Of a stretch of DNA of 64,000 nucleotides, positions 2,118 through 44,560 are shown one piece after another. The position numbers and the translations under genes were made by a program. Numbering within the stretch: the stretch's first letter is position 1; the number at the start of each line of letters is the position of its first letter. A model generated the notes under the pieces. The model was given only the letters and a program-made list of their open reading frames with translations, was not told the DNA's origin and ran no database searches. Source of the DNA: an uncultured Alphaproteobacteria bacterium (GTDB lineage Bacteria; Pseudomonadota; Alphaproteobacteria; Rs-D84). Where the stretch lies: the NCBI GenBank assembly GCA_934255455.1, contig CAKQNS010000001.1, positions 33,826-97,825 on the forward strand, read 5' to 3'.

Positions 2118-2193
2118 GCCGGTGTAGCTCAGCTGGTAGAGCATCTCATTCGTAATGAGGGGGTCGTAGGTTCAAGTCCTATCACCGGCACCA
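2118..2193 (+). tRNA. tRNA-Thr (anticodon CGT)
   Basis: Cloverleaf readable by eye: acceptor gccggtg/caccggc, anticodon stem tctca/tgagg, loop ttCGTaa, T-arm ggttcaagtcc, and a 3' CCA is encoded. Confidence 0.75.
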
Positions 2194-2244: not shown

Positions 2245-2751
2245 TTATTTTTGCAATTGCATCGCATATTGATTCAGTGCCGCAACTTGGGCCTGTTTTT
2301 TCTGTAATTTTGCCAATTGTTTTGCGTGTGCCTCGGCATTCATACCACGGTTTATAAGGTTTTCATTTAATTTATCGACCCATTTAATCAAATATTCAGC
2401 CTGTTTTTTTGTAATCTTTAATTGTGGATCTGGGTTGTGACGTTTCAGAATAACACGGTCTATCATTTTTTCACCGTAAAACACATCGCCGTTATCCTTG
2501 ATAATCATAGATTGTTTTTCAAACAATTTATTATTCACAATTTCAGAACTGATAATAACGCTGATATATTTTTTGAACTCTGGGCCTGTTGTTTTTACAC
2601 GAATGTTTTCCTGGCTTTTACGCATAATATATTTCAGTGTTTGCACACCATCATCACGCAATTTTTTTACCAGTGTGCGCTTTTCAGAAACAGTCAATTT
2701 TTTATCGTTTTCCATAGATTTTTCCTTTATTTTATGTTGACTATAATACAA
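2245..2751 (-). CDS. hypothetical lysine-rich basic protein in an AT-rich islet
   Basis: 168-aa ORF; the start could instead be the internal MENDKK at 2715. No family recognised. The local base composition is markedly AT-richer than the neighbouring genes. Confidence 0.45.
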   Translation of the reverse strand: MYYSQHKIKEKSMENDKKLTVSEKRTLVKKLRDDGVQTLKYIMRKSQENIRVKTTGPEFKKYISVIISSEIVNNKLFEKQSMIIKDNGDVFYGEKMIDRVILKRHNPDPQLKITKKQAEYLIKWVDKLNENLINRGMNAEAHAKQLAKLQKKQAQVAALNQYAMQLQK

Positions 2752-2828
2752 TTTGTCATTAAATCAAGTTATTATTATTCCATTGTATACTTGCATTTTT
2801 TATAAATCCGGTGTATAAATTGCGGGAA

Positions 2829-2861
2829 ATGAAACAAACAGCAATCATTATTATAAAATAA
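2829..2861 (+). CDS. candidate ileS leader peptide MKQTAIIIIK (four consecutive Ile codons)
   Basis: ATG AAA CAA ACA GCA ATC ATT ATT ATA AAA TAA, read directly from the sequence. It lies 55-85 nt upstream of ileS and immediately before a terminator hairpin. Confidence 0.45.
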   Translation: MKQTAIIIIK

Positions 2862-2887
2862 CCTGGCACGGCGCTTTGGCGGTGGCT

Positions 2888-2911
2888 GGGGCGCACGGCG
2901 CCCGTTTTTTA
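2888..2911 (+). terminator. intrinsic terminator / attenuator in the ileS leader
   Basis: Stem gggcgc-acg-gcgccc followed by gtttttt, ending 5 nt before the annotated ileS ATG. The upstream gene is on the opposite strand, so this is not a conventional gene-end terminator. Confidence 0.55.
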
Positions 2912-2915
2912 TATA

Positions 2916-5900
2916 ATGGCAAAACAAAGGTATAAACCAATGGCATATCCAAAGACCGAACCGCGCGCAGATTTTCCTGCACTGGAACAGGAAATATTGG
3001 AATTTTGGCGCAGTGACGATACTTTCCATAAATCATTGAACCAGACAAAACTGGGACATCCGTTTTCTTTCTATGACGGGCCACCGTTTGCAAATGGTTT
3101 GCCACATTGGGGGCATTTGGGTGTATCGGCGGTCAAAGATATGATTTCGCGCTATCAAACAATGCGTAGTCGTCATGTTGTGCGTGAACTGGGGTGGGAT
3201 TGCCACGGGTTGCCGGCGGAATCATCTGTTGAAAAAAAGCAAAAACGCCAGGCCAAAGATATTGTTGCAACCGACGGTATTGCAGCATTCTGTGATATGT
3301 GCCGCAGTGACGTTATGACATATTCAACCGAATGGTTGAAATTTATTGAACGCATTGGTCGTTGGGTTGATGGTGGCGACGGATATGGTTATCGCACCAT
3401 GGATAAAAATTATATGGAATCGGTTATGTGGGCGATAAAGGAATTACATAATCGTGGCCTGTTATACAAAGATTATCGTGTAAATCCATTTGATTGGAAA
3501 CTGGGCACGGTTCTGTCTAATTCCGAGGCATCAAGTGAATACCAAGATGTCACCGATGATGCAATTACCGTGTGGTTTGAATTAGAAAATGGTGATCGTG
3601 CAATAGCATGGACAACAACACCATGGACATTGCCCGCGAACAGTGCGCTGGCGGTGAACCCCGATATGAAATATCTGCGTATGCGTGACACCGATGGGGC
3701 GGTTTATGTCATTGCTGAATCGCGGCTAAAATCGTACGAAAAACAATTGGCAAATGCTACACAAATTGATGCTGTATTCGGTCGCGATTTGGTTGGCATA
3801 AAATATAAACCATTGTTTGATTATTATGCGGGGACATCTGATTTATTATATCAAATTATTCCGGCGGATTATGTGTCCGACGGTGATGGAACCGGCATAG
3901 TGCATATTGCCCCCGCGTATGGCGAGGATGATTTCTGGGCGGCAAAAAATATTGACCCGAAATTCCCAGTAATTTTGAATGTTGATGACTATGGAAATTA
4001 TACATCTGATGTTCGTGATTGGGCGGGCGAAAATATTTTTGATGCAAACCCAAAAATTATAAATCACCTGCGCGAAAATGGCCATTTGGTTAAAAAAGAA
4101 CAACATCGTCATTCATACCCGTATGGCCCACGCAGCAAAGAAAAATTGATTTATCGCGCGACTGATTCTTGGTATATTGATGTGCCAAAAATCCGTGAAC
4201 GTTTGGTTGAAATAACAAAATTGCAAACCAAATGGACATCGGCTGGTGACCGTTTCTTGACATGGATAGAAGGTGCGCGCCCATGGTCAATTTCCCGTAA
4301 TCGTTTCTGGGGAACGCCATTGCCGATTTGGACACGCGATGGCGAATATAAAATATTTGGTTCAATCGCCGAAATCGAAGAATTCTTTGGCGTGAAAATA
4401 AATGACCTGCACCGACCGACACTGGACGCATTAGAAAAAGACGGTTGGAAACGCATCCCTGATGTTTTGGATTGTTGGGTTGAATCGGGTTCTATGCCAT
4501 TTGCATCATTGCATTATCCGTTTGAAAATGCCGATAAGTTTGCGGCAACTTTCCCCGCCGATTATATTATCGAAGGCCAAGATCAAACCCGTGGTTGGTT
4601 TTATTCATTGATGGTTATGGCAACCGCATTGTTTGACAGCCCCGCGTTTCGCACGGTTTCGGCAAACGGTATGATTGTTGATGAACACAAAAAGAAACTG
4701 TCCAAGTCTGTTGGTAATTTTGTAAATCCCGAACAGCAGATTGAACAATCGGGCGCAGATGCCGTGCGTTTGTTCATACTGGGGTCTGGGTTTATGAAGG
4801 CCGAACCAGTATCTATTGATATGGCGGGCAAGGTGTTCAGTGACGCCACAAAAACAATTCTGACCCCACTGTGGAACGCATATCATTTCTTTACACTGTA
4901 TGCGAATGCCGGCAACATTGTTGCGACGGACAATTTCAACACAGACAATGTATTGGATAAATATATTATTGCCGAATTAAACGAACTGATTCGTGTTGTG
5001 GCCGCGGCATTAGATGAATATAAACCAGATGTTGCAATCAAAGAATTCGTACGATTCTTGGATGTATTAAATAATTGGTATATTCGTCGGTCGCGCGCGC
5101 GTTTCTGGGACGAAGATGTGGATGCGTTTAATACATTGCATCGCGTGTTGACAACCGTTTGCAAATGTCTGGCGCCGTTTGCACCATTTATCAGTGAATA
5201 TGTTTATAAAAACCTGACGGGGGCGGAATCTGTACATTTGGAATCGTTCCCAGTGGCAACCGACACAGACGACGCAATTGTTCGTGATATGCGCGGGGTG
5301 CAATCGGTTGTATCGGTTGGAAAACAGTTGCGTGAACAATACAAACTGCGCAATCGTTTGCCATTGGCCAAAATCACGATTGCGGGTGGCGACCTGCATG
5401 CGTATGCCGATATTATTGCCGACGAACTGAATGTAAAGCATGTCGATTTTACACCAAATATCGGTGATGTTGCCGACAGTTTTATTTACCTGATTACACC
5501 AAAGATTGGCGCGCGTCTGGGTGGTGCATTACGCGAAATTATACCGGCTGTAAAGCAAGGCAAATATGAAATTGCGGGCGATAAATTGATTGTTGGTGCG
5601 CATACATTGAACGCCGACGAATTTGAAAATCGTTTGACCGTGTTGCCGGGAATCACCGGTGCCGCATTGCCAGATAACACCGCGGTTGTCGTTCTGGATA
5701 CCGAAATCAACGCCGAATTGGTTGCCGAAGGATTGGCAAACGACGCCCTGCGATTTATCCAAGATTCACGCAAAACGGCGGGATTGGATGTGTCGGATCG
5801 TATTAAATTGACATACAATGCCACGCCCGCCCTGGCCGCCGCGATTGATGCACATCGCGACCGCATTATGTCGGATGCATTGATTGTTGATATGTCGCGT

Positions 5901-5966
5901 GGCGATGGTGAATATGAAACAGAAATAGAGGGTTATAACCTGTCTATTGGAATACACAAGGCATAA
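2916..5966 (+). CDS. ileS: isoleucyl-tRNA synthetase, type 2 (eukaryote-like)
   Basis: Motifs FYDGPPFANGLPHWGH (HIGH region) and KMSKS-like KKLSKS. A type-2 N-terminus (YP..ADF..LE.EIL.FW). The start may instead be the ATG at 2940 (MAYPKTEP...), which has an aaaggt SD. Confidence 0.95.
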   Translation: MAKQRYKPMAYPKTEPRADFPALEQEILEFWRSDDTFHKSLNQTKLGHPFSFYDGPPFANGLPHWGHLGVSAVKDMISRYQTMRSRHVVRELGWDCHGLPAESSVEKKQKRQAKDIVATDGIAAFCDMCRSDVMTYSTEWLKFIERIGRWVDGGDGYGYRTMDKNYMESVMWAIKELHNRGLLYKDYRVNPFDWKLGTVLSNSEASSEYQDVTDDAITVWFELENGDRAIAWTTTPWTLPANSALAVNPDMKYLRMRDTDGAVYVIAESRLKSYEKQLANATQIDAVFGRDLVGIKYKPLFDYYAGTSDLLYQIIPADYVSDGDGTGIVHIAPAYGEDDFWAAKNIDPKFPVILNVDDYGNYTSDVRDWAGENIFDANPKIINHLRENGHLVKKEQHRHSYPYGPRSKEKLIYRATDSWYIDVPKIRERLVEITKLQTKWTSAGDRFLTWIEGARPWSISRNRFWGTPLPIWTRDGEYKIFGSIAEIEEFFGVKINDLHRPTLDALEKDGWKRIPDVLDCWVESGSMPFASLHYPFENADKFAATFPADYIIEGQDQTRGWFYSLMVMATALFDSPAFRTVSANGMIVDEHKKKLSKSVGNFVNPEQQIEQSGADAVRLFILGSGFMKAEPVSIDMAGKVFSDATKTILTPLWNAYHFFTLYANAGNIVATDNFNTDNVLDKYIIAELNELIRVVAAALDEYKPDVAIKEFVRFLDVLNNWYIRRSRARFWDEDVDAFNTLHRVLTTVCKCLAPFAPFISEYVYKNLTGAESVHLESFPVATDTDDAIVRDMRGVQSVVSVGKQLREQYKLRNRLPLAKITIAGGDLHAYADIIADELNVKHVDFTPNIGDVADSFIYLITPKIGARLGGALREIIPAVKQGKYEIAGDKLIVGAHTLNADEFENRLTVLPGITGAALPDNTAVVVLDTEINAELVAEGLANDALRFIQDSRKTAGLDVSDRIKLTYNATPALAAAIDAHRDRIMSDALIVDMSRGDGEYETEIEGYNLSIGIHKA

Positions 5967-9922: not shown

Positions 9923-9958
9923 ATTTTTACCTTTTCAAAAAATAAAAGCCGTCGGTTT
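9923..9958 (-). terminator. terminator/attenuator-like hairpin between rplT and pheS
   Basis: Read on the minus strand: gccgtc-aaacc-gacggc followed by ttttattttttg. It lies about 20 nt upstream of the pheS ATG. Confidence 0.45.
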
Positions 9959-10000
9959 GACGGCTTTTATTATTACAAAACAATCAGCCACCGCCAAGGG

Positions 10001-10369
10001 TTATTTGGATTCGGCGCCAATAAATCGTTTTGCAGTTTCCACCAATTTGGTGAAGTTTTCATCCCCAGCATACGCCATTTCTGCCAAGACCTTGCGATCC
10101 AGGACAACGCCGGCCTTTTTCAGACCGTTCATAAACTGGCTGTATGTCAAGCCGTTGCTGCGAACAGCGGCATTGATACGGACAATCCACAACCCGCGGA
10201 ATTCGCGTTTTTTCACGCGACGATCACGGTATGCATACTGGCCCGCTTTTTCCGTTTTTTCACGGGCGGCACGGTATGTTGTGCTGTGGCGACCCAGATA
10301 CCCTTTGGCACGGGCCAATATTTTATTATGCTTCTGTTTAACGGTTGTTCCGCGTTTTACTCTTGCCAT
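10001..10369 (-). CDS. rplT: 50S ribosomal protein L20
   Basis: MARVKRG...[12 protein letters not shown], a typical L20. Confidence 0.95.
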
Positions 10370-24902: not shown

Positions 24903-25026
24903 AAAAGTTCAAATACCAAAGTGCAAAGTTCATCCGTCGCCGCTGCGCTCCGCCGTGATAAAAATAATGTGTGCGCCGGATGGCGCACTGCTTTATTCAT
25001 TTGAACTCTGAACTTTGAACTTTTAT
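24903..25026. repeat. dispersed modular repeat copy R2 (heptad agttcaa module, rc of the ggcggagcgccagcgg module, gcgcc..ggcgc palindrome, ctttattcatt module)
   Basis: Contains tgaactctgaactttgaactttt and gtgcgccggatggcgcactgctttattcatt. The same modules occur at 30615-30735, 36398-36495, 38465-38560 and 44470-44560. Confidence 0.5.
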
Positions 25027-30614: not shown

Positions 30615-30735
30615 GGGAAAAAGTTCAAATGCAAATTATATATATAGAGAGCACTAAAAAGTTCAAAGTTCAGAGTTCAAAGTTCAAATGAATAAAGCAG
30701 TGCGCCGGCGGCGCAATCCATTGCTCTCTAAAAAT
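30615..30735. repeat. dispersed modular repeat copy R4 (agagagca terminus, heptad module, aatgaataaagcag, gcgccggcggcgc, cattgctctct terminus)
   Basis: agagagcactaaaaagttcaaagttcagagttcaaagttcaaatgaataaagcagtgcgccggcggcgcaatccattgctctct. Confidence 0.55.
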
Positions 30736-36258: not shown

Positions 36259-36488
36259 TATAGTGATGAAGTGATAGAGTTTTAGAATAAAAAAATAAAA
36301 ACTTGTCATTGCGAGCGTAGCGAAGCAATCCAATATAAAGTCACTGCGGGGCAATGGTGACCCTCCTTCGCCGGTATGACGGAATAAAAACATTGCTCTC
36401 TTTATCGCGGCGGAGCGCCAGCGAAGACGGATGAACTTTGAACTCTGAACTTTGAACTTTTTATTGCGCCAACGGCGCAACTCATTGC

Positions 36489-37112: not shown

Positions 37113-37916
37113 CTATTTATCGGCACTTTTCAACAAATTTTGAATTTGTTGTAATGCGGTCCATGCGTCGCGCTTGGCCGTGGGCTTTAATAACAGGTAA
37201 TTTGGGTGGAATATCGGCATACATTTTATACCGGTCAGGCTGTCTGCAACAACGCCGTGTGCTCGCGCCAAATTTGCGCCCGCGATTTCTGTTGCCGGCA
37301 ATGTCCCCAGTGTTAAAATCAAACGCGGTGATAAAAATCCTAATGCGCGGTCAACAAACGGTCGCGTCAAATCCAGTTCATCACGCGTCGGTGTGCGCCC
37401 GCCGGGTGTGCGCCAAAACAGCATCGGCAATATTGATACGCTGTCGCGCGACATTCCAATTGCGGCCAGCATTTTGTCCAATAATTCGCCGGCCGGGCCG
37501 CTTAAAATCTGGCCCGATGCATCATCATCGGCGCTGGGAATATCGGTCACGATAACTAGTCCATTTGGTTTTGGGGCAATGTGTGGCAAAACAACATTTG
37601 TTGCCGCCGCGCGCAATGGGTGACCGAATTCGGAAATCATGCGGCACAGTGACCCTGTGTCCGCCGGTCGTGCGGCCATTGCCCGCGCGGTATCGACCGA
37701 TACCGCAATGGTTGGTGCAATTGGTGGCACAACCGATGTTGGTGTACGAATGTTTGCAATGTCTTGGATGTGTGCAGGATTGCGTGCCGCCGTTGCCGTG
37801 TTTTCCACGCGCGCTGCGGCTTGGACCGCCGCCGATTGTATCAACGCAAACGGCACATCACCTATTTCCCAACAAACCCCAGATAACGCTAAATCCCGCA
37901 GTTCTTCACATTGCAT
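37113..37916 (-). CDS. uracil-DNA glycosylase family-4-like protein with degenerate motif A and Pro/Ala-rich N-terminal extension
   Basis: GPAGELLDKMLAAIGMSRDSV matches the family-4 G.PFVG.AG.LL..ML motif. The expected GEAPG is replaced by TDIPSADDD. Confidence 0.5.
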   Translation of the reverse strand: MQCEELRDLALSGVCWEIGDVPFALIQSAAVQAAARVENTATAARNPAHIQDIANIRTPTSVVPPIAPTIAVSVDTARAMAARPADTGSLCRMISEFGHPLRAAATNVVLPHIAPKPNGLVIVTDIPSADDDASGQILSGPAGELLDKMLAAIGMSRDSVSILPMLFWRTPGGRTPTRDELDLTRPFVDRALGFLSPRLILTLGTLPATEIAGANLARAHGVVADSLTGIKCMPIFHPNYLLLKPTAKRDAWTALQQIQNLLKSADK

Positions 37917-37994
37917 TTTTTGTTTTTCCTTGATTTTTCAAACATTTCATTATACACTATACCACGAGCAACAGAAACTCAAGGGAGTATTTTC

Positions 37995-38411
37995 ATGAAA
38001 ATTAAAAACTTTGCTATGTTAGCCGGTGTCGCTGGTTTGTTGGCCGCTTGTGGTGGTTCCAGCATCGTCGAACCTGCTGACTTGAACGATCAACGCGTAT
38101 TTTTTGCGTTCAATTCTTCGGATATTTCCGACGAAGCGCGCAACAACCTGTTGGGCCAGTCTTTGTATATGAAGAATCACGCCGACACAAAAATCCAGAT
38201 TGCTGGTAATTGCGACGAACGCGGTTCTACTGAATACAACTTGGCGTTGGGTGCGCGTCGTGCAAATGCCGCAAAATCGGTCTTGGTTGCCGATGGCATA
38301 GATTCTAAACGTATTTCCACCATTTCTTATGGCAAAGAACGTCCATTGGTCAAAGGTACCGGTGAAAGCGTTTGGAAAATGAATCGTAACGCAACAACAA
38401 CTGTTAAATAA
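37995..38411 (+). CDS. pal: peptidoglycan-associated lipoprotein (OmpA C-terminal domain)
   Basis: Lipobox LLAAC G, and an OmpA-like domain with NCDERGSTEYNLALGARRA. The start is at the internal ATG with an aagggag SD. Confidence 0.8.
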   Translation: MKIKNFAMLAGVAGLLAACGGSSIVEPADLNDQRVFFAFNSSDISDEARNNLLGQSLYMKNHADTKIQIAGNCDERGSTEYNLALGARRANAAKSVLVADGIDSKRISTISYGKERPLVKGTGESVWKMNRNATTTVK

Positions 38412-38464: not shown

Positions 38465-38560
38465 ATAGCAGAGAGCAATGAAGCGCGCCAATGGCGCGCT
38501 GCTTTATTCATTTGAACTTTGAACTCTGAACTTTGAACTTTTTATTGCTCTCTGCTCTCT
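38465..38560. repeat. full-length canonical copy R6 of the roughly 95-bp modular TIR element
   Basis: agagagcaatg | aagcgcgccaatggcgcgctg | ctttattcatt | tgaactttgaactctgaactttgaacttttt | attgctctct(gctctct). The termini are 10-11-bp inverted repeats. Confidence 0.6.
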
Positions 38561-44469: not shown

Positions 44470-44560
44470 CGCCACGGTGGGCGCCCGCGCAGCACAATAA
44501 AAAGTTCAAAGTTCAGAGTTCAAAGTTCTAATGAATAAAGCAGTGCGCCAACGGCGCAAC
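44470..44560. repeat. dispersed modular repeat copy R7 (heptad module, aatgaataaagcag, gcgccaacggcgc, degenerate terminus)
   Basis: aaaaagttcaaagttcagagttcaaagttctaatgaataaagcagtgcgccaacggcgcaactcattctc. Confidence 0.5.

Follow-up and report, generated by a model that had tools for sequence, protein, structure and literature searches.

In the 64,000-nucleotide (nt) stretch of contig CAKQNS010000001.1 analysed here (the window), which comes from an uncultured alphaproteobacterium, the gene for a type-2 isoleucine--tRNA ligase, ileS, is preceded by a short leader that very probably acts as a ribosome-mediated transcription attenuator, coupling ileS to the supply of charged tRNA-Ile. This reading is based on the conservation of a leader open reading frame (ORF) with a run of four isoleucine (Ile) codons, on an intrinsic terminator, on helices that compete with that terminator, on folding of the RNA with a simulated ribosome footprint, and on the presence of a promoter-like site or a tRNA end immediately upstream. 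The initial annotation of this DNA, made from the letters alone, had proposed just such an architecture of regulatory-codon leader, terminator and gene, and both comparative and thermodynamic evidence now support it. The elements concerned are as follows.

2791 to 2819, plus strand: promoter-like site, with -35 TTGCAT (2791-2796), a 17-nt spacer and a TG-extended -10 TATAAA (2814-2819)
2829 to 2861, plus strand: leader ORF for MKQTAIIIIK, 10 codons and a stop (ATG AAA CAA ACA GCA ATC ATT ATT ATA AAA TAA)
2844 to 2855, plus strand: regulatory codons, four Ile in a row (ATC ATT ATT ATA)
2862 to 2890, plus strand: anti-antiterminator hairpin (P1/P1ext), in which the post-stop spacer and CACGGCGC (2862-2874) pair with GCGGUGGCUGGG (2879-2890)
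2871 to 2894, plus strand: antiterminator, GCGCUUUGGC (2871-2880) paired with GCUGGGGCGC (2885-2894), loop GGUG, which uses up the 5' arm of the terminator
2889 to 2910, plus strand: intrinsic terminator, GGGCGC (2889-2894), loop ACG, GCGCCC (2898-2903), G, T6 (2905-2910)
2926 to 2930, plus strand: Shine-Dalgarno sequence of ileS, AAAGG, 9 nt before ATG 2940
2940 to 5966, plus strand: ileS, type-2 isoleucine--tRNA ligase, 1008 amino acids (aa), MupA-like and DUF5915-containing

A short Ile-codon leader and its competing hairpins

The mini-ORF, the hairpin with its T6 tract and the 27 nt between the leader stop codon and the terminator stem are all present as they had first been read, and a consensus scan also scores a terminator-like site at the hairpin. 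The comparison that gives these elements their weight covered two sets of relatives. A genome scan, taking one genome per species, matched about 300 relatives beyond the best 80 loci, which are the ones compared here and have IleS 75-95% identical to that of the window; to these 80 loci were added nine lineages with IleS 44-49% identical.

An Ile-rich mini-ORF conserved before ileS in relatives, which the initial annotation had named as a check on its idea, was found: 78 of the 80 loci have a mini-ORF of the form M-x(3-5)-IIII-x-stop at a distance of 100-120 nt upstream of the ileS ATG. In L004 the contig ends 60 nt upstream of ileS, with the terminator still visible, and in L069 (2850-3000; IleS 77% identical) a tRNA-Thr is followed by a plain hairpin, ACGACGGCTTCGTCG, and a T-run, and then by ileS. 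The 73 distinct nucleotide versions of the leader encode 59 different peptides with 52 different N-terminal segments. Codons 2-5 are drawn from 11-16 different codons at each position, and no stop is ever created among them, while codons 6-9 are ATA in 63, ATT in 62, ATT in 64 and ATT or ATA in 62 of 65 cases. Exactly one codon separates the Ile run from the stop; it is mostly AAA or AGA, and its final base is always A. The start codon is ATG or GTG and always in frame, the stop is TAA in 72 of the 73 versions, and the peptide has 10 residues in 65 of them and otherwise 8, 9 or 11, so that insertions and deletions come in whole codons only. Because the Ile run is nearly invariant, the other codons are free and the frame is kept, this pattern is, on the sequence evidence, the signature of a translated codon sensor rather than of a functional peptide or an untranslated motif.

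The last codon of the run in the window, ATA, had been thought rare. This is not the case: in the 38 long ORFs of the window 62% of Ile codons are ATT, 19% ATC and 19% ATA, the share of ATA (18.6%) being equal to that of ATC. Mini-ORFs with a run of at least four Ile codons are themselves infrequent. Elsewhere in the approximately 785 kilobases (kb) of window and loci sequence, both strands included, they occur five times (seven rows when alternative start codons are counted); the terminator core accompanies none of the five and a T-run only one, and no second pairing of an Ile-run ORF with a terminator was found in the window or the loci. Another candidate for a codon-run leader in the window, the MNRNATTTVK sequence at 38379, was rejected because it forms the C-terminal end of a longer ORF (166 aa, 37911-38411) with its own terminator.

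The terminator is as constant as the reading frame. A stem and T-run follow the leader stop codon at a distance of 25-30 nt in all 73 versions, and in 72 the stem is GC-rich and 5-8 base pairs long. In L061 the stem has four perfect pairs only, and an A.C mismatch. The cause there (2891-2975) is a G-to-A change in the arm shared by the two structures, which makes the terminator weaker (A.C, -4.9 kcal/mol) and the antiterminator stronger (a U-A pair); this locus is possibly a naturally derepressed variant, or possibly a sequencing error.

The antiterminator is the consensus structure that RNAalifold returns for 72 relatives. Its pairing is present in 95% of sequence-by-pair cells across the 72 sequences, against 32-57% when the partners are slid. 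The most telling case of covariation is L062, where a triple compensatory change gives GCAC in the antiterminator 5' arm, GGGGUGC in the shared arm and GCACCC in the terminator 3' arm. The hairpin that would oppose the antiterminator, P1ext, is the minimum-energy fold of the nascent window RNA from 2862 to 2894 (-16.3 kcal/mol); for its inner part, the P1 helix, pairing is found in 86% of cells, and two of the pairs show compensatory changes. Mutually exclusive terminator and antiterminator folds, which the first proposal had called for, thus exist: the terminator state of the window RNA is calculated at -22.2 kcal/mol and the antiterminator state at -22.6 kcal/mol, and so in the folding model the RNA is bistable, with the two states nearly isoenergetic. 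The repeated element cacggcgc had been suggested as a source of alternative pairings. It does mark one, since two arms vie for one GCGC partner, but the second copy begins at 2894 and not at 2895. The conservation of GGCACUGCGCUUUGGCGGUGGCUGGGGCGC is very high, beyond the need of simple helices, and this can be put down to the overlap of the alternative helices, which gives most bases two partners.

Upstream of the leader there is little room. In the window the -10 hexamer ends 9 nt before the leader ATG, giving a predicted transcription start at about 2826 and a 5' untranslated region of 0-3 nt. Judged by consensus matches, a -35, 17-nt spacer and -10 arrangement ends 7-10 nt before the ATG in about 48 of the 54 loci where no tRNA is adjacent, and the distance from -10 to ATG is 7-10 nt in 43 of the 50 loci scored; examples are TTGATT or TTGCAT with TG-TATAAA, and CTGGAAA with TAAAAT. 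In 25 other loci a stretch of 9-20 nt separates the 3' end of a tRNA-Thr(CGT) from the leader ATG. Since no room for a promoter is left there, the 5' end of the leader would come from tRNA processing, which implies co-transcription. No Shine-Dalgarno sequence precedes the leader ATG, and the leader mRNA is probably leaderless or nearly so.

The gene upstream of the leader in the window had been placed on the opposite strand, and it is a protein ORF on the minus strand at 2245-2715. This ORF, an orphan of 156 aa with no match in Pfam or NCBIfam, lies between the leader and the nearest plus-strand gene upstream:

2118 to 2193, plus strand: tRNA-Thr(CGT), with its own terminator at about 2199-2232

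The identification of the downstream gene as type-2 ileS, also made initially, agrees with three kinds of evidence. The product has the Pfam domains tRNA-synt_1, Anticodon_1 and, C-terminally, DUF5915; it scores 752 bits against NCBIfam TIGR00392 (cutoff 621); and it is similar over its full length to MupA and MupB. Its start lies further downstream than supposed. The ORF read from ATG 2916 would have 1016 aa, and homologues have 1008-1011 aa (120 of 120 among the matches listed). From these homologue lengths, together with the starts chosen by gene callers and the AAAGG that precedes it, ATG 2940 is judged to be the true start, 2916 being merely the first in-frame ATG. The T-tract therefore ends 29 nt before the ileS ATG, and not 5 nt as had been said. 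In relatives the ileS Shine-Dalgarno sequence, at the corresponding position, reads AAGGAG, ACGGAG or AAAGG.

In most members of the family a hexamer resembling TATAAT or TATAAA stands right behind the terminator T-tract (2911-2916 in the window). It was considered as an internal promoter for ileS, but it has no -35 element, and several relatives would start transcription in or after the Shine-Dalgarno sequence. The hexamer is probably the A/T-rich tail of the terminator and is unlikely to be a weak constitutive internal promoter.

Simulated ribosome positions and the predicted switch

The choice between the two structures was modelled on the 73 RNAs, each ended at the end of the terminator 5' arm, that is, at the moment before the 3' arm emerges. 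The footprint of a ribosome was imitated by masking bases from the 5' side, with the first base of the stop codon as the reference for positions; P denotes the probability that the core of the terminator 5' arm already pairs upstream. When nothing is masked, the mean P over the 73 sequences is 0.51, the window RNA having a P of 0.04. Masking up to any base from +4 to +11 raises the mean P to 0.92-0.99, and P exceeds 0.5 in 73 of 73 sequences. Masking up to +13 or beyond gives a mean P of 0.33-0.46.

Toeprinting and footprinting place the leading edge of a ribosome about 9-13 nt past the first base of the A-site codon. A ribosome whose A site holds Ile codon 3 or 4, or the codon that follows, would thus have its edge at +0 to +10, in the antiterminator zone, while a ribosome on the stop codon would have its edge at +12 or +13, where the antiterminator GCGC is covered and the terminator is predicted to win. 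Antitermination in the simulation occurs only with the ribosome on the last Ile codons. The spacing rules of the family, one codon between Ile run and stop and 25-30 nt from stop to terminator, fit this modelled switch geometry. The on/off pattern is shown by 85% of the real sequences and by 4.8% of versions in which the stop-to-terminator segment (25-30 nt) was shuffled; for the full three-state pattern the corresponding shares are 41% and 0.6%. These figures are not to be read as P-values.

A scheme consistent with these predictions is as follows. Transcription would start at the leader AUG or within about 3 nt of it, though in many relatives processing of an upstream tRNA-Thr would instead supply the leader 5' end. 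A ribosome would read the 10-codon ORF while RNA polymerase makes the next 50 nt. When Ile-tRNA is ample, the ribosome would arrive at the stop codon and there cover the beginning of the antiterminator 5' arm (GCGC, 2871-2874); after its release, or if there had been no translation, P1ext (2862-2890) would form and pre-empt the antiterminator. The terminator 5' arm (2889-2894) would be left free, the GGGCGC/GCGCCC hairpin with its U6 tract would form, and transcription would stop at about 2910. When Ile-tRNA is scarce, the ribosome would stall at the point where its A site holds Ile codon 3 or 4; the edge of the ribosome would then cover the P1ext anchor at 2862-2867 and leave 2871-2880 free, so that the antiterminator (2871-2880 with 2885-2894) could sequester the terminator 5' arm; the resulting read-through into ileS would provide more IleRS.

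Weighing the proposed attenuator against other explanations

Several points weigh against attenuation by this route. The case is wholly computational, with the transcription start, translation of the ORF, ribosome stalling and the response in vivo all inferred. Translation of the leader would depend on leaderless or near-leaderless initiation. Covariation in the antiterminator is sparse because the sequences are closely related, both sides having changed in only two pairs and two cells; this same relatedness bears on the comparison with shuffled segments. Of all 80 loci, L069 alone is without the leader element. A clean switch is obtained with truncated transcripts, a kinetic approximation, and not otherwise: in full-length equilibrium folding the mean terminator probability dips in part, from 0.72 to 0.40, and it is above 0.94 from +13 onwards. 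Folding of truncated transcripts was preferred as being nearer to the co-transcriptional decision. The footprint geometry required by the model is also tight, since the ribosome edge must lie 9-13 nt past the first base of the A-site codon, and stalls at the first or second Ile codon would leave P1ext intact.

A simpler proposal is that the hairpin is a plain and partly leaky terminator, an insulator that shields ileS, and that the Ile-run ORF is an untranslated AT-rich stretch conserved for some other reason, as a DNA or RNA motif. The tRNA-Thr close upstream in 25 relatives would suit this role, as tRNA and mRNA need separating, and so would the simple terminator without a leader in L069. 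The missing Shine-Dalgarno sequence points the same way, and a nucleic-acid motif might also be behind the unusual conservation seen at synonymous positions of the Ile codons. An untranslated motif, however, would not hold an in-frame ATG or GTG and a TAA across three upstream contexts, nor would it limit insertions and deletions to threes or let codons 2-5 vary and remain free of stops, and a plain terminator has no need of a conserved competitor helix or of a hairpin in the spacer. Insulation as the whole explanation is accordingly very unlikely. Even less probable is that the GC-rich RNA from 2862 to 2903 is sensed by a trans-acting factor, be it IleRS, uncharged tRNA or a small molecule, with the ORF incidental or only assisting. 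The conservation of GGCACUGCGCUUUGGCGGUGGCUGGGGCGC beyond what simple helices require would be in keeping with such a factor, as would the control of ileS by T-boxes in Firmicutes and Actinobacteria (PMC1262725), but the overlapping alternative helices account for the former, and the region has no match to a T-box or to any other Rfam family. A search of 2600-3100 against Rfam at E up to 10 gave no T-box, the best matches being to unrelated families whose cutoffs are far above the 13-23 bits obtained, and at the gathering score the whole window yields four tRNAs only and no leader or cis-regulatory family. With about 80 nt from 5' end to terminator, the leader is moreover too short for a Stem I or specifier, and the invariant Ile run would be left unexplained. 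An anticodon mimic like that of the ThrRS operator was looked for as well; the two loops, GCUUUG and GGUG, contain neither GAU nor CAU.

The least probable of the alternatives is that the product of the mini-ORF is a small peptide with a function of its own, or that the terminated RNA of about 80 nt acts in trans as a small RNA (sRNA). There is a precedent in peTrpL and rnTrpL of Sinorhizobium, another alphaproteobacterium, in which peptides and sRNAs derived from an attenuator are reported to act in trans (PMC7298713, PMC6614838). Here, however, the Ile run alone is conserved and the other six residues vary, as suits a codon sensor and not a folded or binding peptide, and the window and loci sequence holds no second target or copy. 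A role in trans would in any case add to a cis-acting attenuator rather than replace it.

Relatives of the element, its host and its significance

The classical attenuator of a synthetase gene is that of pheST in Escherichia coli, with its pheM leader peptide, and to our knowledge pheST is the only well-studied synthetase gene under leader-peptide attenuation. The ileS leader resembles it in having a short ORF of cognate codons and a terminator/antiterminator before the synthetase gene, with the charging of the enzyme's own tRNA as the signal. It differs in that pheM has a Shine-Dalgarno sequence and reads Phe, while the ileS leader reads Ile, is shorter (10 codons) and is probably leaderless; there is no sequence homology between the two, and the host of the ileS leader is an uncultured alphaproteobacterium with a reduced genome. 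The trp, his, ilv and leu attenuators of Proteobacteria share with the ileS leader the use of three overlapping helices (1:2, 2:3 and 3:4) read out by ribosome position, and termination as the default when the leader is untranslated at the critical moment. From AUG to U-tract the ileS element measures about 80 nt, which is unusually compact, and its regulatory codons lie upstream of segment 1, not inside it. Whereas those attenuators control biosynthetic operons, this one is directed at a synthetase in a host without amino-acid biosynthesis (PMC12306168).

Attenuation of synthetase genes has been noted elsewhere. A comparative study that cites the pheST attenuator as a precedent predicts classical attenuators for leuS and trpS in Streptomyces (PMC1262725). 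These have, like the ileS leader, an ORF of cognate codons, an antiterminator and a terminator before an aminoacyl-tRNA synthetase (aaRS) gene; they concern other amino acids and taxa, have no homology to the ileS leader, and both they and the ileS leader are predictions. Deinococcus deserti has 14 predicted leaderless leader peptides before aaRS or biosynthetic genes, among them a 10-aa, Cys-containing leader of cysS (PMC4007540). Here too very short ORFs (10 aa) open the transcript, lack a Shine-Dalgarno sequence and stand before aaRS genes, and attenuation was proposed for them; D. deserti belongs to another phylum, however, and its start sites were mapped, whereas that of the ileS leader is predicted from promoter geometry. 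Leaderless leader peptides are also documented in mycobacteria (bioRxiv 10.1101/834739). The T-boxes of ileS, found in Firmicutes and, as a translational variant, in Actinobacteria (PMC1262725), serve the same gene and the same signal, charging of tRNA-Ile, and likewise choose between terminator and antiterminator or sequestor. A T-box, in contrast, binds uncharged tRNA through Stem I and the T-box bulge, with no ribosome or ORF involved, and the ileS leader is far too short for this. No report of an ileS leader peptide was found in the literature, of which coverage was incomplete. The control principle is therefore well known, and its use at ileS is newly seen.

A wider sample was drawn from relatives of P0121 (a 50% cluster representative, 52% identical), and the regions upstream of ileS were read in nine lineages. 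A second and different Ile-rich leader stands before type-2 ileS in an unrelated gut clade, represented by L167/168, L169/170 and L171/172, whose IleS proteins are 86-90% identical to one another and 45% identical to that of the window. The three leaders are MKRFFRPYIPFIIIP, MKLNFQISNIFNIIP and MCSFIQNINIIIIP, at the following positions, with ileS at 701 in each case.

L167, 582 to 640: second-type leader
L169, 549 to 610: second-type leader
L171, 568 to 625: second-type leader

All three end in ATT ATC CCY TAR (Ile-Ile-Pro-stop). A hairpin, AUCCCY-UAR-GGGGAU, draws its 5' arm and loop from the last Ile, Pro and stop codons, and a U-rich tract comes after it. In this design, as its sequence suggests, a ribosome on the Ile run would block the terminator directly. 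L175 (575-640) has a related ORF, MFQINQEIIFRIPVWGN, with an internal AUCCCC/GGGGA hairpin; nothing convincing was found upstream of ileS in L162, L165, L173 and L174, and L164 is uncertain. That Ile-codon leaders precede type-2 ileS in at least two architectures provides independent support for a functional reading.

Two other features of the window deserve mention. The 13-mer TTGGCGGTGGCTG of the ileS leader recurs on the minus strand at 9985-9997, just past the stop codon of rplT, in the spacer between rplT and pheS (9923-10003). This spacer carries a terminator hairpin, GCCGTC-aaacc-GACGGC, and a T-run before pheS, and in the window it contains no Phe-rich ORF. The 13-mer was considered as a common site for a trans-acting factor and rejected, as seven pheS relatives keep a CTTGGCGGC-like sequence and the terminator but not the 13-mer. 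The segment upstream of the pheS terminator resembles the terminator 3' arm and may therefore be a stop-codon-adjacent antiterminator, so that the pheS spacer may have a competitor/terminator pair of its own. The window also has a dispersed intergenic repeat in which the heptamer TGAACTY is repeated in tandem, (TGAACTY)n, as in TTTGAACTTTGAACTCTGAACTTTGAACTTTTT; it stands in at least five places on both strands where none would be expected by chance; two copies adjoin tRNA genes, for tRNA-Val and tRNA-Cys.

24918 to 25023, 30658 to 30686, 36432 to 36460, 38513 to 38541 and 44501 to 44522, both strands: (TGAACTY)n repeats

The host of the window is a gut alphaproteobacterium with a reduced genome, assigned to Candidatus Enterousia (order Rs-D84). 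The genomes nearest to the window are metagenome-assembled, from uncultured Alphaproteobacteria of human and animal guts, and many are labelled Candidatus Enterousia; an identical IleS protein is found on contigs from Hadza and Nepal gut samples. Members of Enterousia (order Rs-D84) have genomes below about 1 Mb and are without amino-acid biosynthesis (PMC12306168). A broader reading can be put forward only tentatively: gut bacteria that have reduced genomes and no amino-acid biosynthesis may have hit repeatedly upon Ile-codon leader ORFs as a means of controlling type-2 ileS. The mini-mRNAs would lack a Shine-Dalgarno sequence and would obtain their 5' ends either at a promoter next to the AUG or by 3' processing of an upstream tRNA-Thr, and the leaders may read both tRNA-Ile isoacceptors, with ATA (the codon of the lysidine-dependent tRNA-Ile2) alongside ATT. 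The Enterousia element would then be the first ileS leader-peptide attenuator described and, at about 80 nt, among the most compact.

If the leader functions as proposed, ileS would join the short list of synthetase genes under leader-peptide attenuation. The element merits annotation, as gene callers miss the mini-ORF and Rfam is without a family for it. Its organisation as a self-contained module of about 80 nt, with a promoter-abutting AUG, 10 codons and three overlapping helices, and with some 70 natural variants to hand, makes it attractive for the study of ribosome-RNA polymerase coupling geometry and leaderless initiation, and as a small sensor part for Ile-tRNA. The second leader architecture suggests that the phenomenon is wider than one genus. 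For a host that has no amino-acid biosynthesis to turn up (PMC12306168), raising the level of the charging enzyme would be the only response open to it when Ile is low.

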